From assembly GCA_044341025.1 (NCBI GenBank), contig JBIISM010000003.1:117105-181104 (forward strand): a DNA stretch of 64,000 nucleotides, written 5' to 3'. Source of the DNA: Bacteroidia bacterium. Its GTDB lineage: Bacteria > Bacteroidota > Bacteroidia > NS11-12g > UBA955. Shown piece by piece: positions 9,178 to 58,567 of this stretch. The notes below the pieces were generated by a model. The model saw only the letters and a program-made list of their open reading frames with translations. It was not told the DNA's origin and searched no databases. A program made the position numbers and the translations under genes. How positions within the stretch are numbered: position 1 is the first letter of the stretch; each line of letters starts with the position of its first letter.

Positions 9178-11520
9178 TTAAAATTCAAGTTTGTAACTAA
9201 AAACTGGGATTAATGGGGTTTGATACCAAGTCTTAACGGCCCCATTATTAACGTCGTAATAGGTGCCTCCAATATTTTTCCTATTGCTCGCATTTTGTAT
9301 GTCTAAACTCCAAATGCTGTTGTATTTCGCATGGTTGATGCGGTAAGAAAATTTCAAATCTGTTCTAAAATAATTTGCCAGTTGTATGCTAAATGGTTTT
9401 GTTTCGTCGTACATAGTTGTTTGGTACAAACGAGACATATTCGCATCCACAGGTGTTTGTCTAAATCCACCATACCAAGTGGTTTTAATGTTGAAGCCAA
9501 ACAATTTTTTACCCCCTTTTATTTTGAATTCTTTCCCGCCTGTAAAAGTCATTGCATGTTTTCCATTGAAGCGGGTGTTATACGATTGACCAGTCATTGT
9601 TTGATACTCACTTTGATACAACGATGCTGAAAGTATGTAATACAAACCCTTGTTTAAAAAACGTTCAGCCGTTAACTCAATTCCATAATTTCTGCCCTTT
9701 CCTTTATTTACCAAAGCTTCATTTACCAAACCAAAATTCAAGTTCAAGATTGAAAAAGTGCTGTTTGCTGCAAGTCCAATTGGAATATTGAACAAGTGCT
9801 GATAATAGGCTTCTAACTTAATTCTTGTTTGACTCTTAAAAACCATTTCATATCCCGCAACAAAATGATGGGCCTTACTCAATCCAAGATTTTTATTTGG
9901 ATAGTGCTTTTCGCCATTTTCATTTTGCAACTGCGTAAAATAAACACCTGGCAATTGTAACTGACTGTGCAAACCATATCCGAAAGTCGCAGTTTGTTTG
10001 GAATTAAGCTCATAGCGCGCAGATAACCTCGGCTCTAAGGAACTTGTCTTATTTAAGCCTAAAAAGATGCCATGAGCGCCCGCAAAGACGTTCAGCTTGC
10101 TATTGAACCTCCATTTAACTTGTGAAAATGCTTGGGCATAAAAAGCTTGATCTTTGCTGTCTAAAAATGTCCTCAAGCGACCATTGCTATCCAAATCTCT
10201 TTGTTCAGTTTTAAAAGCCCAATAATTGGCAATGAATCCAGATCTTAAATGAAGCTTATTGCTAATTTTATGGTTAAGTGTGCTGCTCCAAGCCAATTTA
10301 TTATTGCCAATATTGTTTTTCCAATGGGTGTAAAAATGGGTGTAATCCTTTTCTAAATATTCCCCTTTATCGGTGATGGTATTAGAGGAATACAAGACAA
10401 CAGTTCTCAATGTATTTCTTTTATTGATGTTCAATAAATGGGTCATGCCAGATGCAATGGTGTTGCTGCCATAAAAAATATCGTAACGGTCAGATTGGAA
10501 TTTCCATAATACTGAGTCCTTTTTAGCACTTTGCAGTTGTGCACTAATTCCGGCAAAGCCAAAAAAAGCGATGTTTCCGATTCTAGATTTTGGTAAGGCA
10601 ATATTATATGCTAGGTCTTGAAACAAGGTAGAACTTTCTCCTATTTTTATGCCGAGTTGCTTGATGATTCCAAGAGTAGAATATCTGTAATTTACCAAAT
10701 AGCTTCCGCCCTTTTTACTTAAAGGCCCTTCGGTTGCCAAATCCAATCCTAAAAATCCGGCCTGTAGAGTGTATTCTCTTTTCTTACTGTTGCCTTTGCG
10801 CAAACGCAAATCGAAGACACCGCTTAAAGCATTTCCATATTCTGCAGCAAAAGCACTGCTCATAAAATCTGAATTCCCCAATAGCTGTGCACTCAATATT
10901 GAAATACCACCGCCACTGCCATTAAAACTAGAAAAATGATTTGGTCCCGGGATATCAATGCCCTCCATTCTCCACAACAGTCCAGTTGGGGAATTGCCTC
11001 TTATAACAATGGTATTATTGCCGTCATCGGCTCCAATTACACCTGCAAAGGATGTTGCCATGCGGGCTGGATCATTAACTGCTGCTGCAAATTTTTGTGT
11101 TTCTTCTACCGAAAATGTGCGCGTACTAACCGTTGCCATTTCATTCAATGGCTTTATTTTACTGGCTTTTCCACGCACAACAAAAGCAGATTTTTCTTTA
11201 ATTTGTTCTTCCAATTGAAAATTAACCACCAATTCTTTGCCACTCGTTAATAGTAAATTGGGAATACTCTGTTCGGCATAAACTTTATGTGAAGCCGTTA
11301 TTCTTATGCGACCAACAAGAACATGCTTAAATTCATAATTGCCATTTGAGTCGCTTAAAACAAAATTACTGCTATCTCCATTTAAGTATAGTTTGACTCC
11401 TTCAATGGGGCTAATTAAATTTTTATCGCTAACAGTGCCTTTTATATTTTGTGTGAAGTTTTGCGACCAGGCATCAAAACTGCTCAAAACCAAAATCAAA
11501 ATAAGTGTGTATTTCATCAT
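9178..11520 (-). CDS. TonB-dependent outer-membrane receptor (SusC/RagA-like). It has CarbopepD_reg and plug domains but no STN domain
   Basis: 780 aa. Signal peptide, then IKGTVSDKNLISPIEGVKLYLNG...GNYEFKHVLVGRIRI (CarbopepD_reg), then a plug region (TVSTRTF...IVIRGNSPTGLLWRMEGIDI), a long beta-barrel, and a C-terminal ...FSYKLEF. Confidence 0.8.
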   Translation of the reverse strand: MMKYTLILILVLSSFDAWSQNFTQNIKGTVSDKNLISPIEGVKLYLNGDSSNFVLSDSNGNYEFKHVLVGRIRITASHKVYAEQSIPNLLLTSGKELVVNFQLEEQIKEKSAFVVRGKASKIKPLNEMATVSTRTFSVEETQKFAAAVNDPARMATSFAGVIGADDGNNTIVIRGNSPTGLLWRMEGIDIPGPNHFSSFNGSGGGISILSAQLLGNSDFMSSAFAAEYGNALSGVFDLRLRKGNSKKREYTLQAGFLGLDLATEGPLSKKGGSYLVNYRYSTLGIIKQLGIKIGESSTLFQDLAYNIALPKSRIGNIAFFGFAGISAQLQSAKKDSVLWKFQSDRYDIFYGSNTIASGMTHLLNINKRNTLRTVVLYSSNTITDKGEYLEKDYTHFYTHWKNNIGNNKLAWSSTLNHKISNKLHLRSGFIANYWAFKTEQRDLDSNGRLRTFLDSKDQAFYAQAFSQVKWRFNSKLNVFAGAHGIFLGLNKTSSLEPRLSARYELNSKQTATFGYGLHSQLQLPGVYFTQLQNENGEKHYPNKNLGLSKAHHFVAGYEMVFKSQTRIKLEAYYQHLFNIPIGLAANSTFSILNLNFGLVNEALVNKGKGRNYGIELTAERFLNKGLYYILSASLYQSEYQTMTGQSYNTRFNGKHAMTFTGGKEFKIKGGKKLFGFNIKTTWYGGFRQTPVDANMSRLYQTTMYDETKPFSIQLANYFRTDLKFSYRINHAKYNSIWSLDIQNASNRKNIGGTYYDVNNGAVKTWYQTPLIPVFSYKLEF

Positions 11521-11573
11521 TACACCCTTAAGACAATCGAAATTGGTTTTACCCCTATGCCAAAATAAAAAAA

Positions 11574-13199
11574 TTATTCGCGCTCTATTCTCAACAAATA
11601 ATTCGCCTCAATAAAAGCGTATAAATCAAAGCGATTATCCAATTCAATTACAATTGGTTTATCAGAAACTACAATACCAATGACTTCACCATTGGTCAAT
11701 TTAATGTTTAATGGAAGTTTCAAATCTTTAAGATCCGACTCCAAACGTATGCTATAGCTTATGTTGCCATTGTTTAATATGCTTTGTTTAATTTCCAATT
11801 CAGGTATAGATTTTTTATATAAATACTGCTTGAAAAATAGATCCCAATTATACCTTGTTTTTTTATTAAAGAATTGAACGGTCTCTTCTGTATTAACAAT
11901 CTTATGAAAATATATCGAATTCATTTCCTTTAAACAAGCAAACCACAACGAATCATTATTTAAAATACTGCGCATGGTATGCAGCATCCATGTGCCTTTA
12001 TAATAAATATCACTATCGGTTCTGCCATGGTAAAAAACACCTCTTGGTCCTTGCATTGGATATTTAGATACAATCTTTTTTTTCTGTTCGCTAAGGTATT
12101 CAATTGCTCTTGTTTTATCTACCTGATATTCCATATACAAGGCTTCTGAATAGGTGGTAAAACTCTCGTGTATCCACATATCAGCAGCATCAGATGCCGT
12201 AATGCTGTTGCCGAACCATTCGTGACCACTCTCATGTATGATGATGAAATCAAATCCATAATTATTGTTGTTATAGTTGTTTCCATAAGCGATACAACTT
12301 TGATGTTCCATTCCCCAATAAGGTGTCTCTACCAATTTGTATGAATCGTCTTTAAATGGATATTGACCAAAGTAATACTCAAATGCCTCTAGCATGCCGT
12401 GGACCTGCAAAAAATGCTTTTCTGCTGCAGCTTGGTTATAATCTAATACATAATAGGAAAGCGGCAGTTTATTGATACCAGAAAAAGTATCTACAATGTT
12501 GACATACCGCCCAACATTGATGCTGATACTGTAGTTGTTAATTGGATTAACGACTCTCCAATGAAATGCTTTAAAAGCGCTGTCAACAATTTTTTCATCG
12601 ATTAATTTACCATTGGAAACACCCGTGAGGTCATTCGGTACAATTAATGTAATGTCTGCGCCTTCTGCCTCATCGCTCCAATGGTCTTTGCAAGGCAGCC
12701 AAGCTGATGCTCCCAAACCTTCACAGGCCAAGCCAACCCAATCGTATCCATTATTGTCTTTACGCCATACAAAGCCTCCATCCCAAGGGGCAAGTTTAGC
12801 CTCTAAAGGTTTTCCTGAAAAATAAAGCAGCAAATTATGACTTGAATTTTTGAGTAACCCCCCTGGAAAATCAAACAACACGATATTGCCTTTTCGCTTA
12901 AATGCAATTGGCTTGCCCAAATACTCAGCGCTATCAAGGTTCATAGATTTCGAATAATCCAATTGAATTTTTGATGAGGCTTCCAACATTTTAAACTCAA
13001 TGGCATTACTTCCTGAAATAAATCTTTCAATCGGTTTTATTTTTACCTCTATGTCATAATGTATAACATCAAAGCAAGAGCGCTCAAATACCAATTTGCC
13101 AATATCTTTCCTTTTTGCTTTGGCATGCAGAGACTGCACATTTACAAACGAAATGAAAAACAATAAAAATGAAAAACAATGGTTTAAGGTGCGCATCAA
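11574..13199 (-). CDS. M1-family zinc metallopeptidase (aminopeptidase N-like), secreted
   Basis: 541 aa. HExxH-(18)-E zincin signature in FIIIHESGHEWFGNSITASDAADMWIHESFTTY, a GMEH-like exopeptidase motif (YWGMEHQS), and an N-terminal signal peptide. Confidence 0.75.
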   Translation of the reverse strand: MMRTLNHCFSFLLFFISFVNVQSLHAKAKRKDIGKLVFERSCFDVIHYDIEVKIKPIERFISGSNAIEFKMLEASSKIQLDYSKSMNLDSAEYLGKPIAFKRKGNIVLFDFPGGLLKNSSHNLLLYFSGKPLEAKLAPWDGGFVWRKDNNGYDWVGLACEGLGASAWLPCKDHWSDEAEGADITLIVPNDLTGVSNGKLIDEKIVDSAFKAFHWRVVNPINNYSISINVGRYVNIVDTFSGINKLPLSYYVLDYNQAAAEKHFLQVHGMLEAFEYYFGQYPFKDDSYKLVETPYWGMEHQSCIAYGNNYNNNNYGFDFIIIHESGHEWFGNSITASDAADMWIHESFTTYSEALYMEYQVDKTRAIEYLSEQKKKIVSKYPMQGPRGVFYHGRTDSDIYYKGTWMLHTMRSILNNDSLWFACLKEMNSIYFHKIVNTEETVQFFNKKTRYNWDLFFKQYLYKKSIPELEIKQSILNNGNISYSIRLESDLKDLKLPLNIKLTNGEVIGIVVSDKPIVIELDNRFDLYAFIEANYLLRIERE

Positions 13200-17135: not shown

Positions 17136-18013
17136 TGTATTTTTGTTGATGTGATGAATACGCCTGCAAAAATCAACATAATTGCCAATATTTTGTGCAT
17201 GCTAAGTTCATCTTTTTTAAGTAACACCGCTATAATGGCGGCTAGTATAGGTTGTAAATAAATATATGCCCCAACCAATGCTGGTCCGGCTTTTAAAATC
17301 GCGAAGGCATTTAATAGATAAGTGACAAAGGTGGTAAATACAATAATGAACAATACCTCGATTATTATCTTTGCATCCATCAATGCAAACTTTGCTTCGC
17401 TTAATTCGCCTATTCCAAATGGAAAAACCAATATTGCACCTATTAGAAAGGTATACTTTGATACAGTCAAGGTATGGTAATGAACCAATAACTTTTTTAC
17501 TAAAACCAAATATGCGGCATACGAAATGGCATTTAATACAATTAAAATATCGCCCGGCAAAGTATCACCTGAAAAACTGAATGTTCTTCCAGCCATTAAA
17601 ACCAAACAACCAACACTGGCCAATAAAACCCCAAGAAACTGTGCTAGCAACAATTTCTGTTTATTGATCACAACATTTAATACCAATACGAAAATGGGTG
17701 TTGCCAACATTAAGACTGCTCCATTAATTGGGGTAGTAATCTCTAGTCCTTTAAAAAACATCAACATATTGGCTGCTACGCCAAAGACACTACAGGCAAA
17801 TATTCTTAGCCCGTGTGCTTTCCAATCTATCTTTTCACTTTTAATGGCCAGCGAGGCAATCAAAAATAAAAATGCAGCACCAGATACCCTGAGTACAATA
17901 AATCCAAATCCTTGCAAGTAAAAAGGCATAATATCCTTTACCAAACTAAACGTTATAGCATAGATAAATGATACGGTGAAAAGTGCAAAGTGAACGCTAA
18001 AATTTTTATTCAA
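17114..18013 (-). CDS. DMT-superfamily (EamA-like) transporter
   Basis: 299 aa, ~10 TM helices, duplicated EamA-type halves. Overlaps yicC by 22 nt. Confidence 0.65.
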   Translation of the reverse strand: MNKNFSVHFALFTVSFIYAITFSLVKDIMPFYLQGFGFIVLRVSGAAFLFLIASLAIKSEKIDWKAHGLRIFACSVFGVAANMLMFFKGLEITTPINGAVLMLATPIFVLVLNVVINKQKLLLAQFLGVLLASVGCLVLMAGRTFSFSGDTLPGDILIVLNAISYAAYLVLVKKLLVHYHTLTVSKYTFLIGAILVFPFGIGELSEAKFALMDAKIIIEVLFIIVFTTFVTYLLNAFAILKAGPALVGAYIYLQPILAAIIAVLLKKDELSMHKILAIMLIFAGVFITSTKIQWYKSKA

Positions 18014-24658: not shown

Positions 24659-25894
24659 TTAATTAATATCTATATTTTCAATTGCCTTTAAAACCATCTC
24701 AGTTGCTCCTGAATTTTCTTCTACAAAGCGCTTACATGCCAATCTTGAAGATTGAATTTCATTGCCTTCTAAAAAGATTGCGTGGGCATTTTCAAAATCA
24801 GTCACGTTACTTACGCTCATCGCAATACCTGCCCTTATTGCCAGTTCTGCTTCAGGGTATTTTTCTGTATGAGGGCCAAACACAACAGGAACACCATAAG
24901 CCAATGCTTCCAAAATATTGTGTAAACCTTTGCCAAATGCGCCACCTATAAATGCCAAATCTGCGTACAAATATGCCGATGCCAAATGACCAATCGTATT
25001 GAGCACCATAACATTGGATTCTGTCTCTATCCCATCGCTATACAATTGAGGATTATAGGCCATAAATCTGTTTACTATGTCTGCAATATGAGACTCTGAC
25101 ACATCATGCGGAACAATTAAAATCTTGTATTTATGGTTGGGATTTTTAAGGCAAAACGCATGAAGTATACGTTCTTCTTCTGGCCAGCTGCTTCCTAAAA
25201 TAATCAACTGCTGATCCCCTTTGAACTGAGCAATCTTATCGTTTTCTTGAGCCATAGTTGACAGCTGTTTTACCCTGTCATATCGGGTATCTCCAGATAA
25301 AAATACATTATTCAAACCTTTAGCCATCAGCAATTCTAAGGTGTTTTTGTCTTGAACAAATATGCCTGAATATTGAGGAAGCAGTCTAAATAAAAACTTA
25401 CCTAAGTTCGAAAATAGAAATTGTTTTTTCCTAAAAACAGCTGATATTAAAAACACAGGAATCTTCTGTTTAAAAAGGGCTTTTAAATAAAAATACCAAA
25501 TTTCGTATTTAACAAAGATGGCCACATCGGCTTGTAAATAATGAACTGTTTTTCTAGCAGCCCTAGTACCATCTAAAGGCAAATACATGACAAGATCAGC
25601 CAATGGATAATTGTGCCTTTGTTGGTATCCAGAAGGCGAAAAAAAAGTAAGCACTATGCTGTTGGTGGCATTCTTGCTTTTTAATGCTTCCATCAAAGGT
25701 CTTGCTTGTTCAAATTCGCCCAAACTGGCACAGTGAAACCAAAATCTTAGGCCATTTTTTTCTAAAGGTACACTCGGAATACTTTTTAATTGTGCCTCTA
25801 AAAATTGTTTGGTCTTGCCTTTTTTAATGAAAGGATTGACCACTGGAATTAAGCACTTAAGAATAGACAGTATGCAACGGTAAACAAACAACAT
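24659..25894 (-). CDS. waaA: 3-deoxy-D-manno-octulosonic acid (Kdo) transferase
   Basis: 411 aa. N-terminal LRFWFHCASLGEFEQARPLMEAL and a C-terminal GT-B half (...GGAFGKGLHNILEALAYGVPVVFGPH...), as in KdtA/WaaA. Confidence 0.75.
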   Translation of the reverse strand: MLFVYRCILSILKCLIPVVNPFIKKGKTKQFLEAQLKSIPSVPLEKNGLRFWFHCASLGEFEQARPLMEALKSKNATNSIVLTFFSPSGYQQRHNYPLADLVMYLPLDGTRAARKTVHYLQADVAIFVKYEIWYFYLKALFKQKIPVFLISAVFRKKQFLFSNLGKFLFRLLPQYSGIFVQDKNTLELLMAKGLNNVFLSGDTRYDRVKQLSTMAQENDKIAQFKGDQQLIILGSSWPEEERILHAFCLKNPNHKYKILIVPHDVSESHIADIVNRFMAYNPQLYSDGIETESNVMVLNTIGHLASAYLYADLAFIGGAFGKGLHNILEALAYGVPVVFGPHTEKYPEAELAIRAGIAMSVSNVTDFENAHAIFLEGNEIQSSRLACKRFVEENSGATEMVLKAIENIDIN

Positions 25895-25896
25895 AT

Positions 25897-26721
25897 TTAT
25901 TCGAAGAACCGCTCCTCTTCACCCTTTTTATTGCCTGCTTGTCTTCCAGAAAGAGAAATCATAATGCCAATCTTAAGCCCTAAAAGCATATCGTTGCGCA
26001 ATTCTGAGTCTGCTTTTCGGGTATCATAGTTATAAGAACGTCTGTTTTTTGTGAACCCATTTAACAATTCCATTCCCGCATAAAAGTTCATTCTGCCTTT
26101 TGGATCTATGCGCTGATACCCAAAAAATCCGCGAACCATTAAGCCATTCGTTAAGCGGTCGTAACCCTTGTAGTAATTGTTTTCTAATTGAGGCAACACT
26201 GTTCTTTGGAAGGTGAATTTAAGCTTGTGTTGCATAAACCCTAAACCTCCTGTTATTAATAGCCCAGAATTGCGCTCAAAACTTCCCAATGGAATTAGTT
26301 TGCCAAAATCAATATGCCAATGATAGCCCCTTTCATACATCCTAACATCTGCGTAGGTTCCAGTGTTGTCAATCAACAATCCCCCATTGCCAATCATAGA
26401 ATCTAAAATACCACTTTCTTTAACCCGACCTGAGAATATGGTGTTTACACCGCCTTGCACTTGAAAGTTTTTTCCAAATTTATAGGCCAGCGTAAAACCA
26501 ACTGAATTACTTCCACCAAAACGTTTGCTTAAGAGCCCTATGGGTGCTTGCCTTCCGTAATTCATGCACAAAAGCACAGTGTTTCGGTAATTAGAGTGTT
26601 TCGATGAGGCAACTGAAGCTGTATCAGCAGAAAATGCCCACATTGGGAAAAAAATTAGACAAATAATTACCGCTCTAAAATTGTACACATTGCAAATATA
26701 CAAAAAAACAATCTCAGTCAA
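25897..26721 (-). CDS. Hypothetical outer-membrane beta-barrel-like protein
   Basis: 274 aa. Amphipathic beta-strand alternation throughout, ending in an aromatic-rich segment. Sits between waaA and osmC. No recognisable motif. Confidence 0.4.
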   Translation of the reverse strand: MTEIVFLYICNVYNFRAVIICLIFFPMWAFSADTASVASSKHSNYRNTVLLCMNYGRQAPIGLLSKRFGGSNSVGFTLAYKFGKNFQVQGGVNTIFSGRVKESGILDSMIGNGGLLIDNTGTYADVRMYERGYHWHIDFGKLIPLGSFERNSGLLITGGLGFMQHKLKFTFQRTVLPQLENNYYKGYDRLTNGLMVRGFFGYQRIDPKGRMNFYAGMELLNGFTKNRRSYNYDTRKADSELRNDMLLGLKIGIMISLSGRQAGNKKGEEERFFE

Positions 26722-26737
26722 GAAGCTCTATTAAGAT

Positions 26738-27163
26738 CTAAGCCAATTGACCGTTTACATAAACCGAATGGCTAACATTTGAACCGTATTCTAAAGCTTT
26801 AGAAACAGAACAGTACTTTGTAAATGAGAGCTCTGCCGCGCGCTTTGCTTTGTCTAGATCAACTGTTCCTTGGATTAAAAACTTTACTTCTATGTCTTTA
26901 TATACTGAATGGTCTTCAACCTTTATGCTGTCGCTTTCTACCTCAACTTGAAAATCTTGAATGTCTTGTCTTTGTTTCTTTAATATTGAAATAATATCTA
27001 TTGCACTGCATCCACCTATTGAAACCAATAACAATTGCATAGGACGCATGCCTTTATGATGTCCTCCAATACTTTCTGAACCATCCATCAATAAAGTATT
27101 GTTGGTGTCATTTGTGGCCTCCATTAAAAAGTCATCGTCAATGCGCTTAATATTTATTTTCAT
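26738..27163 (-). CDS. osmC: OsmC/Ohr-family peroxiredoxin-like protein
   Basis: Start trimmed to the Met at 27163 (MKINIKRID...), giving 141 aa. Two conserved Cys regions (SIGGCSAIDIISILKK ... KYCSVSKAL). Confidence 0.7.
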   Translation of the reverse strand: MKINIKRIDDDFLMEATNDTNNTLLMDGSESIGGHHKGMRPMQLLLVSIGGCSAIDIISILKKQRQDIQDFQVEVESDSIKVEDHSVYKDIEVKFLIQGTVDLDKAKRAAELSFTKYCSVSKALEYGSNVSHSVYVNGQLA

Positions 27164-27279
27164 AACGTAATATAATGATGCAAAATAAGGTCTTAGAATT
27201 TCCTTTACAAGTGACAAATACCACAAACAAAAAACATTACACCAAGATTACCTATTCTAAGATAAAGTTGGGTAGCTCC

Positions 27280-27304
27280 TCATGGGGTGGAAAACACCCC
27301 ATGA
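27280..27304. repeat. GC-rich perfect palindrome, copy 1 (tcatggggtg-gaaaa-caccccatga)
   Basis: Seen directly: 10-bp inverted arms with a 5-nt loop. A 28-nt core is identical to copy 2, which lies 81 bp away. No flanking U-tract on either strand. Confidence 0.7.
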
Positions 27305-27359
27305 ACACTTAAAAACTGTAGACTATAGTTTGCTTTACAAAGAAATATTCGGGTAACGA

Positions 27360-27386
27360 TTCATGGGGTGGAAAACACCCCATGAA
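27360..27386. repeat. GC-rich perfect palindrome, copy 2 (ttcatggggtg-gaaaa-caccccatgaa)
   Basis: Seen directly: 11-bp inverted arms. Same core as copy 1. Lies between the stop of the ABC exporter gene and the osmC start. Confidence 0.7.
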
Positions 27387-27400
27387 CATTTATCTAATTA

Positions 27401-29209
27401 TTAAGAATGGGTATTGTGCAATTTGTAATAATACCCTTGTTTAGAAAGCAATTCCTGGTGGTGGCCCCTTTCAACAATGCGGCCCTTGTCCATCACTATA
27501 ATTTCATCTGCATCTTGAATGGTGCTGAGCCTATGCGCAATTACCAGAGTGGTTCTTCCCTGACGCAAACGGTCGAGTGCTTGTTGAACCAATTTTTCAC
27601 TTTCATTGTCTAAGGCAGAAGTTGCCTCGTCCAAAATCAAAATTGGTGGATTCCTTAGCAGAGCCCTAGCAATTGCCAATCGCTGTCTTTGACCACCACT
27701 TAACTTGCTGCCACGCTCACCAATTACAGTTTCAAATCCATGCTCTGTAGCCATAATAAATTCGTAAGCATTTGCCAACTTTGCCGCTTCTTCAACTTCC
27801 TGCATGGTATGGCCAGTTTGACCAAATAAGATATTGTTGCTTATACTGTCGTTGAACAATATTGCCTCTTGAGTTACAATACCCATTAGCGAACGCAAAT
27901 CATCTATTTTATAGTCGCGTATATCTACACCATCTATTTCAATTGCGCCTTCAGCAACATCATAAAAGCGGGGCAACAAGTCAGCCAAGGTACTCTTACC
28001 ACTTCCACTTGATCCTACCAATGCTACTTTTTTGTTTTTAGGTATTTCGAAAGAAACGGCATCCAAAACGTTTTCATTTTTATACGCAAAAGAAATATTC
28101 TTATAGGATACACCCGTTTTTAGCGCTGAAATTGGCACTGGATTAATCTTTTCAATAATTTTTATATCGGTGTTCAATATTTCTTCATAACGGTCCATTC
28201 CTGCTGCACCCCTTTGAACCATTGGAAATGCTTGAGACAGTTGTTTGAATGGCGGAATTACTTGACTGAAAATAGCAAAATATGCCAAGAATGCCGAGCC
28301 CGCGATTTCGCCATTAAACACCATATTTCCCCCAAACCACAGCAATACACCGGCTACAAAAATGGCCAAAGTTTCTGATATCGGGGAAGCCATATCGCCT
28401 CGGTGGTTCACTTTAATGTTTGCGCTTGTAGAGTTGTCGTTTAAATTTTTAAACTTTGACCTGAACACCGTCTCAACCACAAACGCTTTTATAATTCGAA
28501 TGCCGCCTAAAGATTCTTCTAAAAAGGACAAAACAGTGCTTTGTTCCTCTTGGTTGCGCTTCGATTTCCGCCTCAATGATTTTCCCAATAATGCAATTGA
28601 ACCCGCAGCCAAAGGCAATAATATTATGACGTACAATGTGAGTGTTGGACTCATGTAGACCAAAGTCCCAATGTAAAAAACAATACTTACAGGCTCTTTA
28701 AATATCGCTTCCAATGACGCCATCAAACTCCATTCAACTTCTTTCACATCATTGCTCATCCGTGAAATAATATCGCCCTTACGCTCATCGCTAAAATATG
28801 ACATTGGCAAATCTAAAATCTTATCGTAAACCCGTTTGCGAATGTCCTGAATAACACGGTTTCTCAGTATCACCAAATAATACAAAGCCATATACCTGGC
28901 TATGTTTTTTATCACTGTGGCAACAACCAAACTGATGCAAATTAAAAACAAAGCCTCGCGCTTATTGTCTTGCACAAATTCGGTCATCCATTGAATAAAA
29001 TCGCTGTAAAGTGAATTAAAATCGCTGCCTCCTGTTGACTTCTGTCTAAAAGCATCCTTGTTGTTGTTGAACATAAAATCGAGCAAGGGCATAAGCAAGG
29101 CAAGAGAGAAAAGTCCCGCTAAAATCTGAACCAAATTAAACAGCATATTAAGTGCCGCAAGCCCTTTAAAAGGAACTATCAGTCTTATCATGCGCAACAT
29201 GGCTTTCAT
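27401..29209 (-). CDS. ABC transporter, fused permease/ATP-binding (MsbA-like lipid exporter)
   Basis: 602 aa. Six-TM N-terminal half. Walker A GSSGSGKST, signature LSGGQRQR, Walker B ILILDEATSALD. Its neighbourhood with waaA suggests an MsbA-type role. Confidence 0.75.
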   Translation of the reverse strand: MKAMLRMIRLIVPFKGLAALNMLFNLVQILAGLFSLALLMPLLDFMFNNNKDAFRQKSTGGSDFNSLYSDFIQWMTEFVQDNKREALFLICISLVVATVIKNIARYMALYYLVILRNRVIQDIRKRVYDKILDLPMSYFSDERKGDIISRMSNDVKEVEWSLMASLEAIFKEPVSIVFYIGTLVYMSPTLTLYVIILLPLAAGSIALLGKSLRRKSKRNQEEQSTVLSFLEESLGGIRIIKAFVVETVFRSKFKNLNDNSTSANIKVNHRGDMASPISETLAIFVAGVLLWFGGNMVFNGEIAGSAFLAYFAIFSQVIPPFKQLSQAFPMVQRGAAGMDRYEEILNTDIKIIEKINPVPISALKTGVSYKNISFAYKNENVLDAVSFEIPKNKKVALVGSSGSGKSTLADLLPRFYDVAEGAIEIDGVDIRDYKIDDLRSLMGIVTQEAILFNDSISNNILFGQTGHTMQEVEEAAKLANAYEFIMATEHGFETVIGERGSKLSGGQRQRLAIARALLRNPPILILDEATSALDNESEKLVQQALDRLRQGRTTLVIAHRLSTIQDADEIIVMDKGRIVERGHHQELLSKQGYYYKLHNTHS

Positions 29210-29302
29210 AAGGGCAAAGTAAAGCTATTTTTTAACGGAAGTCAAACACTAATTATAACATGAAATGAAGTTTCTAATCAATGTGTAACAAGACTATTTG
29301 AC

Positions 29303-30370
29303 TTACAAATTCAATAAATCTGCGAATTCCTTATTCAAATACAACTTTTCCCTTCCCGAAGATTTCTCTAACAACAAACCCATTTTTACTAGGTGGTCGA
29401 GGTAGGTGTAGGCAGTTTGGCGGTGACAGCCGATGGCCTCACAAATCATCTTAGGTTTAATGTAGGGCTTGTAAAACAGAACATCCAGAAGTTCATTTGC
29501 TGGTAAAATATAATCGGTGTACTTCTCTAACTGGTCTTTGAATTTCTTGCGCAATTGAACATAAAGTTTAGTTGTCTCCAATAAAAGAACAACAGCTTCC
29601 TCAAGCTTTTGGATGATAAATGCCATCCACTTTTCAAAACTTTGATTGATCATTACCTCTCTTAGCAATAAATTATAGGTTTCCTTTTCTTTGAACAAGA
29701 TAAACGAAATAGGAATGCAATTATACAGTATGCCAAGCTCTCTAAAAAAAAGCTTAGTGAGGATTCTAGCACAGTGCCCATTCATTTGTAAATACGGTGC
29801 CAAAGCTCGAAATTGATAATGTATCAAAGCCAAGCCTTGCAAACTGCTCGTTTTCTTCAATTGCTTAAGGGCCTTATCCAAATCAAGCCTTAAATATTGA
29901 ATCAAACTTGGATTATTTGGAGTCGTGTACAAACATAAATTGGTAAAATAACTTTGAATACGTACTTCCTTTTTATCTCTAAACATTTCAAACTGTCTTT
30001 TTGAGAGATGCAAAAACTCAGGAGCCAAATTGTTTACACTGAGAGATTCAATCTCATCCTTCCATTCGATAGATTTAAAAATTATCTTGGCATTCTTTTC
30101 ATTTAAATTATTCTCTGATGAATATGCCTCCAATAAACGCTGAACAGAAATCGAAACACCTTCAAGGTCAAATGAATACTTGCTGTCTACCAATTCAATT
30201 AATTGAAAAAAATTAAGAATGCCATTGTTAAACTGTGCATCCACATATCCGTTTAAATGATAAATTGATTTCCAACATGACTCTGAAATACCGTGTAGCT
30301 CTGAAAGACTTAATATTTTTAATTCATTAAGTGGTTTTAACTGGTTATGCGGTAATTGACTGTTTATCAA
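29303..30370 (-). CDS. Fic/DOC-fold protein with a degenerate active-site motif and a C-terminal winged HTH
   Basis: 355 aa. The central block ALIHYQFRALAPYLQMNGHCARIL aligns to the Fic motif HPFx[DE]GNGRxxR as APYLQMNGHCAR (His, Asp, Gly and Arg are replaced). C-terminal wHTH: ICEAIGCHRQTAYTYLDHLVKMGLL. Confidence 0.45.
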   Translation of the reverse strand: MINSQLPHNQLKPLNELKILSLSELHGISESCWKSIYHLNGYVDAQFNNGILNFFQLIELVDSKYSFDLEGVSISVQRLLEAYSSENNLNEKNAKIIFKSIEWKDEIESLSVNNLAPEFLHLSKRQFEMFRDKKEVRIQSYFTNLCLYTTPNNPSLIQYLRLDLDKALKQLKKTSSLQGLALIHYQFRALAPYLQMNGHCARILTKLFFRELGILYNCIPISFILFKEKETYNLLLREVMINQSFEKWMAFIIQKLEEAVVLLLETTKLYVQLRKKFKDQLEKYTDYILPANELLDVLFYKPYIKPKMICEAIGCHRQTAYTYLDHLVKMGLLLEKSSGREKLYLNKEFADLLNL

Positions 30371-30474
30371 TTTTATGTCGAATTATCTTACAATTTTCGA
30401 CATTTATATTCAATTTATTAAATTTTATTTAAATAATTAATGATTTCAATCAATTAAAATCTCCTCGAATAACT

Positions 30475-30482
30475 TAATTTTG
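30475..30482 (+). promoter_or_regulatory. Candidate sigma-A -7 element (TAatTTTG) for glnN
   Basis: taattttg lies ~19 nt upstream of the glnN ATG at 30501. Confidence 0.3.
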
Positions 30483-30500: not shown

Positions 30501-32672
30501 ATGTCTTCAACATCAAGCAAGAATTTAATTCAAGAGAAACCACCCCACAAACAAATGAAACAGATATCAGAGTACTTCGGAAAAAGTGTTTTCGGCCCAA
30601 AAGCAATGGCCGAATTCGTTAGCAAAGAAGCCATCAAGGCTGTAAATGAATCAAGAAATACAGGAAAGCAAATGGACCGTAAAATGGCAGACCAGATTGC
30701 AGAAGGTATGAAAAATTGGGCCATCGAAAAAGGTGCCACCCACTACACACACTGGTTCCAACCATTGCGTGGTTCTACTGCAGAAAAACACGATGCATTC
30801 TTCGATCCAACAGGAATTGATACAGGCATTGAAGTGTTTACAGGAAAATCATTGGTACAACAAGAACCAGATGCATCAAGTTTTCCTAATGGTGGCATTA
30901 GAAATACATTTGAAGCTAGAGGCTATAGCGTTTGGGATCCTTCATCTCCAGCTTTTATTATGGAAAAAGCCGGCGGTAAAACCTTGTGCATTCCAACAAT
31001 TTTTGTTGCTTACACAGGAGAAGCGCTCGACTATAAAGCACCTTTAATAAAATCAACTAATTTCTTAACCAAAAACACAACTGCTGTTTGCCAATATTTT
31101 GACGCTAACGTTAAAAACACAAAAGTTTCCTTGGGTATCGAACAAGAATATTTTTTAGTTGATGAGGAATTATACCACCAAAGACCTGACTTGGTTTTTG
31201 CAGGAAGAACTCTAGTTGGTAACATGCCTGCCAAAGGCCAACAATTAGAAGACCATTATTTTGGCAGCATTCCAGAAAGGGTCTACAACTATATGACCGA
31301 CTTTGAAAAAGAAGCTTTAAAATTAGGCATACCCCTCAAGACCAGACACAATGAAGTGGCGCCTGGTCAGTACGAATGTGCACCAATGTTTGAAGAAGCG
31401 GATATCGCCATCGACCACAACTCTTTGCTTATGGATGTTATGCAATCTGTTGCAAGCAGACATAAATTGAAAGTTATTTGGCATGAGAAACCATTCAAAG
31501 GTGTTAATGGTTCTGGTAAACACAACAACTGGTCGCTTATTACAGATACTGGTGTTAATCTACTTTCTCCAGGACATAGTCCTATTGATAACCTGCAATT
31601 TTTAACCTTCTTTATCAATACCATTAAAGCGGTTCACGACCATGCGGATTTGTTAAGAGCCAGTATTGCTACTGCGGCAAATGACCATAGATTAGGGGCT
31701 AACGAAGCGCCTCCTGCTATTATGTCCGTTTTTATTGGTAGCACGCTAAGCGAAGTGTTAAATCAATTCCAAGCAATTAAAACACCGGTTATAACCGGAA
31801 AAGTGAGTGAAAAGACAATCAGTGTGTACCGTATTCCTGAAATACTTTTAGACAACACCGACCGCAACCGTACGTCTCCATTTGCTTTCACAGGAAATAA
31901 ATTTGAATTCAGAGCAGTTGGATCCAGCGACCATTGCGCAAATGCAATCATTGTATTGAACACCATCGTTGGTAACCAATTGGAAGAATTTAAAAAAGAA
32001 GTAGATGCTTTAATTAAAAAGAAAACCAATAAACTTCTTGCCATCGAACAAGTTTTAAAATCGTACGTCAAAGCAAGCAAAAAAATTATTTTTGAAGGCA
32101 ATGGATATGGCGATGAATGGGTAAAAGAAGCTATAAAAAGAGGTCTAAGCAACATCAAAACTACGCCATATGCATTAGATGCCTACAGCACCAAAGCAAG
32201 CAAAGATCTGTTTGTGAAAAACAACATCTTTACCATCAAAGAACTAGAGGCACGTACAGAAATTAAATTTGAAAACTACCTGTTAAAAATTCAAATTGAA
32301 GGCAGAATCTTAGGCGAATTGGTTAAAAATTATGTTATTCCTTCTGCAGTTGAATACCAAAAGAAATTAATTGATACCATTGAAGGGCTTAACAGAATTG
32401 GACAAACCAAAGCAGAAAACAAAGGCTTGTATACCTTAGCTAAAGAAATATCTTACAACGTTAATGCAATTTGGGAAAACAACAACAAAATGGTTGATGA
32501 AAGAATCAAAGCCAACAAATTAACACATGCCGATAAAAAAGCAAAAGCTTATTGCGACAAAGTAAAACCTTATTTTGACAGCATCCGCGAAAGCGCAGAC
32601 AAACTTGAAGAGCTAATCGACAACGACGCTTGGAAACTGCCTAAATACCGCGATTTGTTGTTCTTGAAATAA
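30501..32672 (+). CDS. glnN: Glutamine synthetase type III
   Basis: Start trimmed to the first ATG (MSSTSSKNLIQ...), giving ~723 aa, the GSIII size. The N-terminal region ...WAIEKGATHYTHWFQPLRGSTAEKHDAFF... and a catalytic core (NGSGKHNNWS) match Bacteroides-type GlnN. Confidence 0.8.
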   Translation: MSSTSSKNLIQEKPPHKQMKQISEYFGKSVFGPKAMAEFVSKEAIKAVNESRNTGKQMDRKMADQIAEGMKNWAIEKGATHYTHWFQPLRGSTAEKHDAFFDPTGIDTGIEVFTGKSLVQQEPDASSFPNGGIRNTFEARGYSVWDPSSPAFIMEKAGGKTLCIPTIFVAYTGEALDYKAPLIKSTNFLTKNTTAVCQYFDANVKNTKVSLGIEQEYFLVDEELYHQRPDLVFAGRTLVGNMPAKGQQLEDHYFGSIPERVYNYMTDFEKEALKLGIPLKTRHNEVAPGQYECAPMFEEADIAIDHNSLLMDVMQSVASRHKLKVIWHEKPFKGVNGSGKHNNWSLITDTGVNLLSPGHSPIDNLQFLTFFINTIKAVHDHADLLRASIATAANDHRLGANEAPPAIMSVFIGSTLSEVLNQFQAIKTPVITGKVSEKTISVYRIPEILLDNTDRNRTSPFAFTGNKFEFRAVGSSDHCANAIIVLNTIVGNQLEEFKKEVDALIKKKTNKLLAIEQVLKSYVKASKKIIFEGNGYGDEWVKEAIKRGLSNIKTTPYALDAYSTKASKDLFVKNNIFTIKELEARTEIKFENYLLKIQIEGRILGELVKNYVIPSAVEYQKKLIDTIEGLNRIGQTKAENKGLYTLAKEISYNVNAIWENNNKMVDERIKANKLTHADKKAKAYCDKVKPYFDSIRESADKLEELIDNDAWKLPKYRDLLFLK

Positions 32673-32798: not shown

Positions 32799-34205
32799 AT
32801 GCGCATCAAGGCAACCAATATTTACGCTTCTATCTGTCTGGCAATAGGCATGGCTTGCGTCTATTGCATTTTAGACTATTTATACGGCGTATTTACCCAG
32901 CCCTATTTTTGGGATGAATTAGGCGTATATAGCCGTTCTTCTATGTACCTTAGCGACTACGGACTTAGCCTTTTGCCTGATTCCGTTCCAGATGAATTAT
33001 CGCGCGGCCATCCACTTTTATGCCCTCTTTATTTTGCCTGCGCATTTAAAATTTTAGGCTGCAATCCTTTTGCCGCGCATATAGCTGCGGCTGTATTAAA
33101 TGCCATTGGCTTCTTTTTGGTATTCGCAATATTGCTAAAAAACACAAAACCATTTGTTGCTGCAGCCGCTACTTTGGCCATTTTTGTGCAGGCACTATTT
33201 TTATCTCAGTCGCTACTGATACTACCTGAAATGCCGCTTATGGTTTTCACCCTTGCTGCTGTTTACTTTTATATTAATGATAAGATTCTGGCCTCAGCAT
33301 TGTTTATTGTACTTGCACTTCAAATAAAGGAATCTGCCCTTGTGCTGCCATTTGCTTTTTTGGTTTCCGAATCGCTGAGACAAAAGAAAATATTTACAAA
33401 AAACAACCTTTACCTATTTGCATTTCCTGTTCTAAGCTTTTTAATATTTATAGGCATTCAAAAAATCCAGAGGGGCTATTTCTTTTACCCACTCCATACT
33501 TCTCTAGCCTCGTCTGATCCCTATTATATCAATGAGCGTTGGCAAAATTTTAAACTATTTTTTCTTTACCAACAAGGGCATATTTATTTTTTAATTGCCT
33601 TGGCTTTTATACTTTTATTGAATCTAATTTTAAAGTTTAAAAGCATACCAAATCTAATCAAAAACAAAGCAAGCATTTACCCAATCCTTGTTCTTGGATG
33701 TGTTGCATTCTTGGTTTTAAATTACTTTCTAAGTAGGTATACGCTTTACTTCTTTATCTTTATTTACATTGCTTTCTTTCTCCTTGTATTTAACCTGCTT
33801 AAAGAGAAACAAAATCTTGCCTATTTAATCGCTTTGGCACTAGCTGTTTTAGGGATTATGAATTGGAACACAGACGAAGATTACACCGATATTGACTTCT
33901 CTTACAGCCAACACATTCGGTCAGTTCAAATGGCAATCAACGAACTAAACACGGATTCATTTACCAATAAAACAATAGGTATGGATTTCCCCGTTTCTGC
34001 TGTGTATTGGAATTCAAACAATGGTTTTAAATTAAAAGGAAACCATAAAATGTGCCCACTTTACGACTCAGCATGCTCTAAAGACTTTGTTCTTTTAAGC
34101 CACCCGGGCAACATGGCCGACACCACGAAATTTAATGCGTCTTACACCTTTTACAAAGAGCTCCGCAAAGGATATGCGTATTGTAGAATTTACAAAAAGA
34201 AATAG
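32799..34205 (+). CDS. Polytopic GT-C-fold membrane glycosyltransferase (ArnT/PMT GT39/GT83-like), paralog A
   Basis: 468 aa, ~11 TM helices. N-terminal loop PYFWDELGVYSRSSMYL...LSRGHPLL, similar to ArnT/PMT family loop 1. It is a paralog of 55591..57042 (PYFWDEMGAYASGVLYM...SFGHPLM) with a conserved C-terminal HPGNM block. Confidence 0.5.
   Translation: MRIKATNIYASICLAIGMACVYCILDYLYGVFTQPYFWDELGVYSRSSMYLSDYGLSLLPDSVPDELSRGHPLLCPLYFACAFKILGCNPFAAHIAAAVLNAIGFFLVFAILLKNTKPFVAAAATLAIFVQALFLSQSLLILPEMPLMVFTLAAVYFYINDKILASALFIVLALQIKESALVLPFAFLVSESLRQKKIFTKNNLYLFAFPVLSFLIFIGIQKIQRGYFFYPLHTSLASSDPYYINERWQNFKLFFLYQQGHIYFLIALAFILLLNLILKFKSIPNLIKNKASIYPILVLGCVAFLVLNYFLSRYTLYFFIFIYIAFFLLVFNLLKEKQNLAYLIALALAVLGIMNWNTDEDYTDIDFSYSQHIRSVQMAINELNTDSFTNKTIGMDFPVSAVYWNSNNGFKLKGNHKMCPLYDSACSKDFVLLSHPGNMADTTKFNASYTFYKELRKGYAYCRIYKKK

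Positions 34206-58495: not shown

Positions 58496-58567
<72 letters not shown>

Follow-up and report, generated by a model that had tools for sequence, protein, structure and literature searches.

What does a protein of the Fic family do once the residues of its catalytic motif have been replaced, and what relates its gene to that of a glutamine synthetase? This question is raised by a gene of the minus strand, hereafter named pseudo-Fic, found in a 64-kb window (the whole analysed stretch of 64,000 nucleotides) from a Bacteroidia bacterium. It is located between the gene of an MsbA-like exporter and the divergent gene glnN, which codes for a type III glutamine synthetase (Table 1). A first-pass annotation of the sequence had proposed either a pseudo-enzyme or DNA-binding regulator that has kept the Fic scaffold, or a Fic protein with altered chemistry. 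The register of the motif, the fold, the conserved winged helix-turn-helix (wHTH) and a palindrome lying over the 5' end of the gene all favour the first of these proposals. Pseudo-Fic most likely works as a transcription factor and not as an enzyme, and we propose that it is, with reasonable probability, a dimeric repressor acting on the palindrome over its own promoter and probably also on the divergent glnN promoter.

The TTG start codon of the reading frame is backed by the orthologues, which display an ATG at the same aligned position (MINSQ...). In the Pfam scan of the protein, the sole passing model was SoFic-like_C (PF21248), with 56 bits for a cutoff of 27 over residues 291-349; the Fic model PF02661 gave 13.8 bits, below its cutoff of 24. 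The NCBIfam equivalog NF046030 (protein adenylyltransferase SoFic) gave 112.9 bits and stayed below its cutoff of 550. With phmmer against the PDB sequences, the whole protein aligns with the chains 9tb0, 3eqx and 3zcn of SoFic from Shewanella, with E values of about 1e-22. An AlphaFold2 (AF2) model was built on 47 homologues, with a mean local confidence (pLDDT) of 91 and a predicted template-modelling (TM) score (pTM) of 0.90. The best Foldseek match of this model is SoFic 3zcn, aligned over the full length with a TM score of 0.78. The further matches are other Fic-wHTH proteins, including CbFic2 (8cil) and CccR (7xux), and the Foldseek probability is 1.00 for SoFic, FICD, BT_2513 and others.

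The alpha-helical core, the beta-hairpin flap and the active-site loop between two helices, which define the Fic/Fido fold, are all present in the model. The motif SFDLEG represents in the same chain the N-terminal inhibitory helix (S/T)xxxE(G/N) of the class II Fic proteins, and the score of PF21248, above the gathering threshold, is that of the SoFic-like wHTH proteins. The wHTH is modelled as three helices (291-298, 306-313 and 317-329) followed by two strands (334-338 and 341-345). Judged from the model, pseudo-Fic is a member of the Fic/Fido fold and a full-length protein of the class II, SoFic-like wHTH group. The layout announced by the first-pass annotation (N-terminal helices, a core motif region and a C-terminal wHTH) is thus recovered by the phmmer alignment, by PF21248 and by the AF2 and Foldseek comparison. 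At the N-terminus, the residues N3, S4, Q5, P7, N9, L11, L39 and G41 are conserved. Residues 1-45 match the dimerisation element of SoFic and CccR, whose N-terminal dimer interface has been described (bioRxiv 10.64898/2026.07.09.737422; PMC9755527), and pseudo-Fic may dimerise by analogy with these two proteins.

Both the phmmer alignment and the alignment of the clade place APYLQMNGHCAR in register with HPFIDGNGRTGR of SoFic. The substitutions from SoFic to pseudo-Fic are His to Ala, Phe to Tyr, Asp to Gln, the first glycine (Gly-1) to Met and the first arginine (Arg-1) to His; Pro, Asn, the second glycine (Gly-2) and the second arginine (Arg-2) are retained. The catalytic His, the acidic residue and the first Arg are therefore replaced as the first-pass annotation had read them, and Pro, Asn, one Gly and the terminal Arg are kept as it had stated, except that the glycine lost is the first one and the glycine kept is Gly-2. 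Elsewhere in the protein no intact Fic motif or catalytic His was found, the register given by the hidden Markov model (HMM) and by phmmer being unambiguous. The signature HxFx[D/E]GN[G/K]R with its invariant catalytic His, which characterizes the competent Fic enzymes, is thus absent from pseudo-Fic. A catalytically inactive SoFic made in the laboratory (PDB 9tb0) bears the identical change of His to Ala.

The degenerate motif is shared by a whole clade. The search in the protein database showed a clean break, where 49 clusters (29-93% identity, E values of at most 8e-32) carry PF21248 alone and the next matches (about 25% identity, E values of about 1e-21) are canonical proteins composed of Fic_N, Fic and SoFic-like_C. 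Conservation was counted in an alignment of 47 sequences of the clade, all originating from uncultured Bacteroidia. The position of the catalytic His is occupied by Ala (29 sequences), Ser (17) or Gly (1) and never by His. The position of the Mg2+-binding acid is variable, that of Gly-1 is always bulky (Met, Leu or Phe in 42 sequences) and that of Arg-1 contains His, Leu, Val or Ala. On the other hand Ser66 of the inhibitory helix is invariant, position 70 is Glu (36) or Asp (11), Asn197 is conserved in 46 sequences and Arg202 in all of them. Since these residues are kept and the catalytic positions are lost, the alignment indicates that in this clade the inhibitory helix is still latched, as a structure, to the motif loop (Ser/Glu to the last Arg), and that the catalytic chemistry is gone. 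Against close orthologues, the overall Nei-Gojobori ratio of nonsynonymous to synonymous substitutions (dN/dS) lies in the range 0.04-0.13; in the unsaturated comparisons, those with the two closest orthologues, each domain stays below 0.2. These values show that purifying selection acts on the protein.

The conservation of Pro, Asn, Gly-2 and Arg-2 in the motif, as well as that of the inhibitory Ser and Glu, could be expected from a Fic enzyme with altered chemistry that relies on other catalytic residues, the second proposal of the first-pass annotation, and Fic folds do support several chemistries (PMC4454073). This proposal is nevertheless very improbable, since the positions of His, of the acid, of Gly-1 and of Arg-1 are lost, variable or blocked across the clade, the bulky residue at Gly-1 should fill the phosphate-binding anion hole, the same His to Ala change is that of the inactive 9tb0, and one subgroup of the clade lacks the whole motif together with the flap. 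No characterised Fic/Doc activity is known to do without the His.

This distant subgroup is composed of the loci L030-L033, L035 and L036, with proteins of about 320 amino acids at 27-29% identity. The roughly 25 residues forming the flap are deleted and no remnant of the Fic motif is present. The wHTH is nearly unchanged (CHRQTAY...GREKLY), and the RLFEAxxSEN helix and the LNGY turn are also kept. From the sequences, the subgroup is a later stage of decay in which flap and motif have been erased. As both are missing there, the part common to the whole family is the scaffold with the DNA-binding domain, and not the active site.

The most conserved segments of the clade are the flap hairpin and the wHTH (CHRQTAYxYL...SGREKLYL). 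In the wHTH the residues C315, H316, R317, R340 and E341 are invariant. In the main clade the flap has the lowest entropy of all segments (1.20 bits), with seven invariant residues (R131, S140, T143, N144, Y148, T149 and P151). This conservation would suit a protein-binding pseudoenzyme, or substrate trap, whose dead cleft and flap hold a partner such as the glutamine synthetase itself or a nitrogen-signalling protein, DNA binding being secondary or modulated by the partner. The flap of Fic enzymes docks the target peptide, and VopS holds its target more tightly when it is catalytically dead (PMC2686095); for Bartonella BepC, the recruitment of host proteins by non-catalytic Fic domains is reported (PMC7842960). 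The constant adjacency to glnN would also agree with such a partner. However, the distant subgroup has no flap and still keeps the adjacency to glnN, the palindrome and the wHTH, so that partner binding is not the function of the family as a whole, and we consider a substrate trap to be quite unlikely.

In the wider family, a profile search against 1.84 billion representatives recovered 5293 relatives. Every match bearing CHR[QH][TS]A is devoid of the canonical motif, and the bulk of the family displays HPFxDGNGRxGR. Outside the clade, the His is also lost in about 13 of about 125 representatives with a SoFic-like wHTH, being replaced by Asn, Gln, Ser, Tyr, Arg, Cys, Ala or Met (P0098, P0104, P0125, P0138, P0140, P0159, P0160, P0176, P0178, P0192, P0202, P0206 and P0207). 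In this search of representatives, catalysis seems to have been lost repeatedly with retention of the wHTH.

Upstream of the start codon lies a candidate operator, a 27-bp palindrome that is unique in the window, where none is expected. The pattern TG[T/A][C/T]GA-N15-TC[G/A][A/T]CA was recovered in about 25 of 32 non-redundant loci, always with 27 bp and with a variable, A/T-rich spacer. In the main clade its end and the start codon are 2-7 nt apart, and diverged versions are present in the distant subgroup. The information content exceeds 2 bits at the two half-sites only and falls to 0-0.5 bits over most of the remaining region. The half-sites are separated by 21 bp from centre to centre, corresponding to two helical turns. 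In the main clade, the right half-site overlaps TAATTTCG, which is similar to the -7 box of Bacteroidota; in the distant subgroup the similar sequence is TATTTG, found just downstream. Read from the consensus TAnnTTTG, the right half of the palindrome would lie over the pseudo-Fic promoter. The position of the conserved palindrome is the one expected for the inverted repeat of a CccR-type autoregulator, which lies over the regulator's own promoter and is bound by the HTH of a dimer. With the relaxed pattern TGWYGA-N15-TCRWCA and one mismatch allowed, 5 matches were obtained in 64 kb, against an expectation of 1.8. The intergenic site alone is perfect; one of the others (at 17152) falls in a coding sequence, and these remaining matches look like chance.

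An RNA hairpin was considered as the main explanation of the palindrome and rejected, since 28 of the 42 deviations from the half-site consensus break base pairing and the sequence itself is conserved beyond pairing. The same count bears on the idea that pseudo-Fic is a decaying, functionless relic of an anti-phage or toxin gene of the SoFic type, with a palindrome that would form an RNA hairpin or serve another factor as its site: breaks in pairing at this frequency argue against a selected RNA helix, although the hairpin is moderately stable and the protein matches the SoFic model of PADLOC with 115.9 bits. A relic is hardly credible in view of a dN/dS of about 0.1 across the domains, of the reading frame intact in 29 species and of a fixed housekeeping context that is not a defence island. 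No viral relatives were found in IMG/VR, and on this ground a mobile or phage origin of the gene was rejected. The assignment to the SoFic anti-phage defence system (PADLOC PDLC03963) was also discarded, because a canonical relative scores 367.6 bits with the same model, the motif is dead and the context is fixed in 36 loci.

The promoter of glnN was examined on the other side of the intergenic region. TAnnTTTG is the -7 consensus of the Bacteroides/Flavobacterium promoters, and its complement CAAAnnTA was detected upstream of glnN in 31 of the 32 non-redundant loci. Distances were measured in the 26 loci where the palindrome pattern also matched. Most loci, those of the distant subgroup among them, have the glnN -7 box 83-86 bp away from the centre of the palindrome; the distance is 73-74 bp in L005, L006 and L018, and 62-64 bp in L007 and L012. 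These spacing classes are about 11 bp apart and intermediate distances are absent. The steps are suggestive of a constant helical face being required between the palindrome and the glnN box. In the window the TTG at 30480, listed as the glnN start, falls inside the -7 box, so that the true start is almost certainly the ATG at 30501, 18 nt after the box; many alignments of glnN orthologues do not start before query residue 4-26.

A second short palindrome, TGATTTCAATCA, is present at 30441-30452 between the glnN -7 box and the candidate operator, roughly at -40 of glnN. The equivalent position contains different sequences that are also palindromic, namely TGACAATAGTCA in L001, TGATGCCAATCA in L010, TGATGAAAATCA in L011, TGGATGATTCATCCA in L002, TTGAATGGATTTCAA in L018 and AGATAAGCTTATCT in L019. 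From its sequence, this element may be a site for another factor.

The neighbours of the window were mapped onto 36 related loci, including 29 GTDB species representatives, all metagenome-assembled genomes (MAGs) of uncultured Bacteroidia; several of these MAGs are labelled as lake sampling series. The gene glnN is the divergent neighbour of pseudo-Fic in all 36 loci. Neither of the canonical relatives P0054 and P0065 lies close to glnN, which indicates a linkage particular to the degenerate clade. The gene msbA is found downstream and co-directional in 28 of the 36 loci, usually followed in the relatives by osmC, a gene for a 260-aa protein and waaA where the contig continues. In L029-L033, L035 and L036 msbA is not downstream and is replaced by a convergent PMT_2-like gene, or by asd and gdh. 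The far side of glnN is rearranged as well in these loci; the glnN/pseudo-Fic pair and the palindrome persist.

The first-pass annotation had described both neighbours as having the opposite transcription logic and pseudo-Fic as probably not in an operon. This applies to glnN but not to msbA, which is on the same minus strand. As msbA is co-directional in 28 of 36 loci and starts 93 bp downstream in the window, and as no terminator-like site was detected between the two genes (29210-29302), an operon of pseudo-Fic with msbA is plausible from the sequence.

The same arrangement enters into a more restricted explanation, in which pseudo-Fic would control its own gene locally, or nothing but the envelope cluster msbA-osmC-waaA downstream of it, and the adjacency to glnN would be an inherited gene order devoid of regulatory significance. 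The palindrome is placed relative to the start codon of pseudo-Fic, as in the autorepression of CccR, msbA follows in the same direction in 28 of the 36 loci with no terminator-like site detected in the window, and the carrier genomes are fairly close. Against this explanation, L029-L033, L035 and L036, without msbA downstream, have kept the glnN pair and the palindrome despite rearrangements on the far side of glnN, and the spacing to the glnN -7 box shifts only in steps of about 11 bp. We regard it as unlikely.

In the preferred mechanism, pseudo-Fic, in which the Fic core is kept as a scaffold, would be a homodimeric, sequence-specific DNA-binding protein. The core has lost the catalytic His, the acid that binds Mg2+ and the first Arg, and a bulky Met, Leu or Phe replaces the first glycine of the anion hole. 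The two wHTH domains of the dimer would read the half-sites of TGTCGA-N15-TCGACA. As the palindrome lies over the promoter and the 5' end of its own gene, we propose an autorepression by the bound protein, which in the main clade would probably extend to the co-directional msbA cluster; CccR is the precedent for this proposal. An action of the bound protein on the divergent glnN promoter, which would connect it to nitrogen assimilation, is proposed because glnN is the sole invariant neighbour and because the distance of the palindrome to the -7 box is helically phased.

Several points weigh against this mechanism. DNA binding, dimerisation and the effect on glnN are all inferred, in carriers that are exclusively uncultured MAGs. 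The phasing rests on about four independent indels only. The neighbour proteins are similar across the loci (83-99% for glnN, with a 68% outlier in L034, and 86-99% for ruvB), and part of the synteny may therefore reflect shared ancestry rather than selection. The palindrome can adopt a hairpin structure as RNA (-8 kcal/mol, z = -2.05) and could belong to another regulator. There is a single good site in 64 kb, so that a regulon is not definable from the window, and a clean co-variation between the residues of the recognition helix and the half-site variants was not found. Finally, a role limited to DNA binding does not account for the strong conservation of the flap in the main clade. A more ambitious version gives the flap a role: a Fic protein of the toxin or defence type would have been domesticated in a freshwater lineage of Bacteroidia into a dedicated glnN transcription factor, whose dead site and flap would sense the nitrogen status through a trapped protein or ligand. 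This version is speculative and we hold it to be doubtful. If true, pseudo-Fic would be the first glnN regulator described for Bacteroidota and, among natural Fic pseudoenzymes, the first with a housekeeping regulatory role.

Among the solved structures, SoFic (SO_4266 from Shewanella oneidensis; 3EQX, 3ZCN and 9TB0) is the closest relative, with the same domain order and the SoFic-like_C wHTH in common. As a dimer, SoFic binds the 100-bp region upstream of its start codon; its AMPylation target is EF-Tu (bioRxiv 10.64898/2026.07.09.737422). It differs from pseudo-Fic in being an active AMPylase/deAMPylase of EF-Tu, from a family used in anti-phage defence, whereas pseudo-Fic is without the His, Asp, Gly-1 and Arg-1.

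CccR from Yersinia pseudotuberculosis (YPK_0951, PDB 7XUX) shares with pseudo-Fic the class II Fic fold, the N-terminal inhibitory helix and the C-terminal HTH (Foldseek E value of 5.5e-6, TM score of about 0.5, below that of SoFic). It dimerises via an N-terminal helix and a loop, and its HTH binds AGATAATCAT-N26-ATGATAATCT over its own -35/-10 region, leading to an autorepression that is independent of FtsZ AMPylation (PMC9755527). A dimer on an inverted repeat over its own promoter and autorepression are what we propose for pseudo-Fic, and in CccR the regulatory and enzymatic activities are separable. The operator is of the type 10-N26-10 in CccR and 6-N15-6 in the pseudo-Fic candidate. CccR differs from pseudo-Fic by its intact motif (His192), by its AMPylation of FtsZ, by its role as an effector of the type VI secretion system and by the position of its gene, which is not beside glnN.

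CbFic2 from Coxiella burnetii (8CIL) also associates Fic and wHTH domains, dimerises via the N-terminal helix and binds DNA; in contrast to pseudo-Fic it is catalytically active, its DNA binding stimulates histone H3 AMPylation and this binding is largely non-specific (PMC10628234). In the non-catalytic Fido domains of Bartonella BepC, of other Beps with degenerate motifs and of AvrB, the Fic/Fido scaffold has outlasted the loss or alteration of the signature and is used for binding instead of AMP transfer. These proteins are secreted effectors targeting the host, without wHTH and with other motif changes, and not chromosomal regulators.

On the functional side, GlnR and TnrA of Bacillus, as well as NtcA for the cyanobacterial glnN, are DNA-binding proteins acting on glutamine synthetase promoters. 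The analogy with pseudo-Fic is functional only: their folds (MerR and CRP) are unrelated to Fic and none of them derives from a Fic-family enzyme. NtcA and glnN are the subject of a review (PMC6316151).

SoFic, CccR and CbFic2 are known as enzymes that also bind DNA. In pseudo-Fic the enzyme half is off, and the DNA-binding half, the candidate operator and the gene partner are kept, so that the clade represents a natural case of separation of function in the Fic-wHTH family. It would also illustrate how an enzyme or toxin turns into a regulator, the distant subgroup corresponding to a later stage. Our literature searches led to CccR, SoFic, CbFic2 and BepC, but to no account of a Fic-wHTH protein that is naturally dead and acts as a chromosomal regulator, nor to one of a regulator or of the control of the type III glutamine synthetase gene in Bacteroidota. 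Pseudo-Fic provides a concrete and testable candidate for this role. For this clade, the annotation "Fic family protein" and the matches to defence models would be misleading.

Table 1. Position in the window of pseudo-Fic, of its segments and of the neighbouring elements.
Feature	Position	Strand	Remarks
Pseudo-Fic gene	29303..30370	minus	TTG start, 355 aa and a stop codon; class II Fic fold of the SoFic/CccR type, with C-terminal wHTH
Conserved N-terminal loop (MINSQxPYNQLP) and long helix alpha-1	residues 1-45, 30236..30370	minus	AF2 helix 22-45
Inhibitory-helix motif SFDLEG, (S/T)xxxE(G/N)	residues 66-71, 30158..30175	minus	aligns on SoFic SSEIEN
Beta-hairpin flap, signature R..KSYFTNLxLYTxP (clade-specific)	residues 125-152, 29915..29998	minus	from conservation
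Degenerate Fic signature APYLQMNGHCAR (canonical HPFx[D/E]GNGRxxR)	residues 191-202, 29765..29800	minus	phmmer register to SoFic
wHTH (SoFic-like_C)	residues 291-355, 29306..29500	minus	recognition helix start CHRQTAYTYL, wing SGREKLYL
Candidate operator, 27-bp palindrome TGTCGAATTATCTTACAATTTTCGACA	30376..30402	unstranded	TGTCGA-N15-TCGACA, ends 5 nt before the pseudo-Fic start codon
Putative glnN -7 promoter box TAATTTTG (Bacteroidota type TAnnTTTG)	30475..30482	plus	86 bp from the palindrome centre; read from sequence
glnN, type III glutamine synthetase	30501..32672	plus	divergent from pseudo-Fic; GSIII_N, Gln-synt_C and Gln-synt_C-ter on orthologues
MsbA-like ABC exporter	27401..29209	minus	co-directional with pseudo-Fic; heads the conserved cluster msbA-osmC-hypothetical gene-waaA

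Concerning the carriers, several MAG records (loci L009, L025, L012, L026 and L035) are titled "Chitinophaga pinensis" or "uncultured Chitinophaga sp.", and near-identical loci bear no more than the label "Bacteroidia bacterium"; the species naming of these ENA records seems unreliable. In the gap between msbA and osmC (27360-27386), there is a GC-rich, terminator-like hairpin with an 11-bp stem (TTCATGGGGTGGAAAACACCCCATGAA); its sequence suggests that a pseudo-Fic/msbA transcript, if one exists, would end there. A conserved envelope-related cluster flanks the gene pair (24659-29209 and 32799-34205), with the MsbA-like exporter, OsmC, a 274-aa protein without Pfam match and WaaA (Glycos_transf_N). 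Beyond glnN is encoded a multi-pass membrane protein of 468 aa, whose orthologues give weak PMT_2 matches (ArnT-like glycosyltransferase). In L036 a glutamate dehydrogenase gene (ELFV_dehydrog, 11286-12548) is located 2.3 kb downstream of pseudo-Fic and represents a second nitrogen-assimilation gene nearby. The Rfam scan gave no match in the pseudo-Fic/glnN intergenic region, and the sole match in the window is a tRNA at 58496-58567 on the minus strand.

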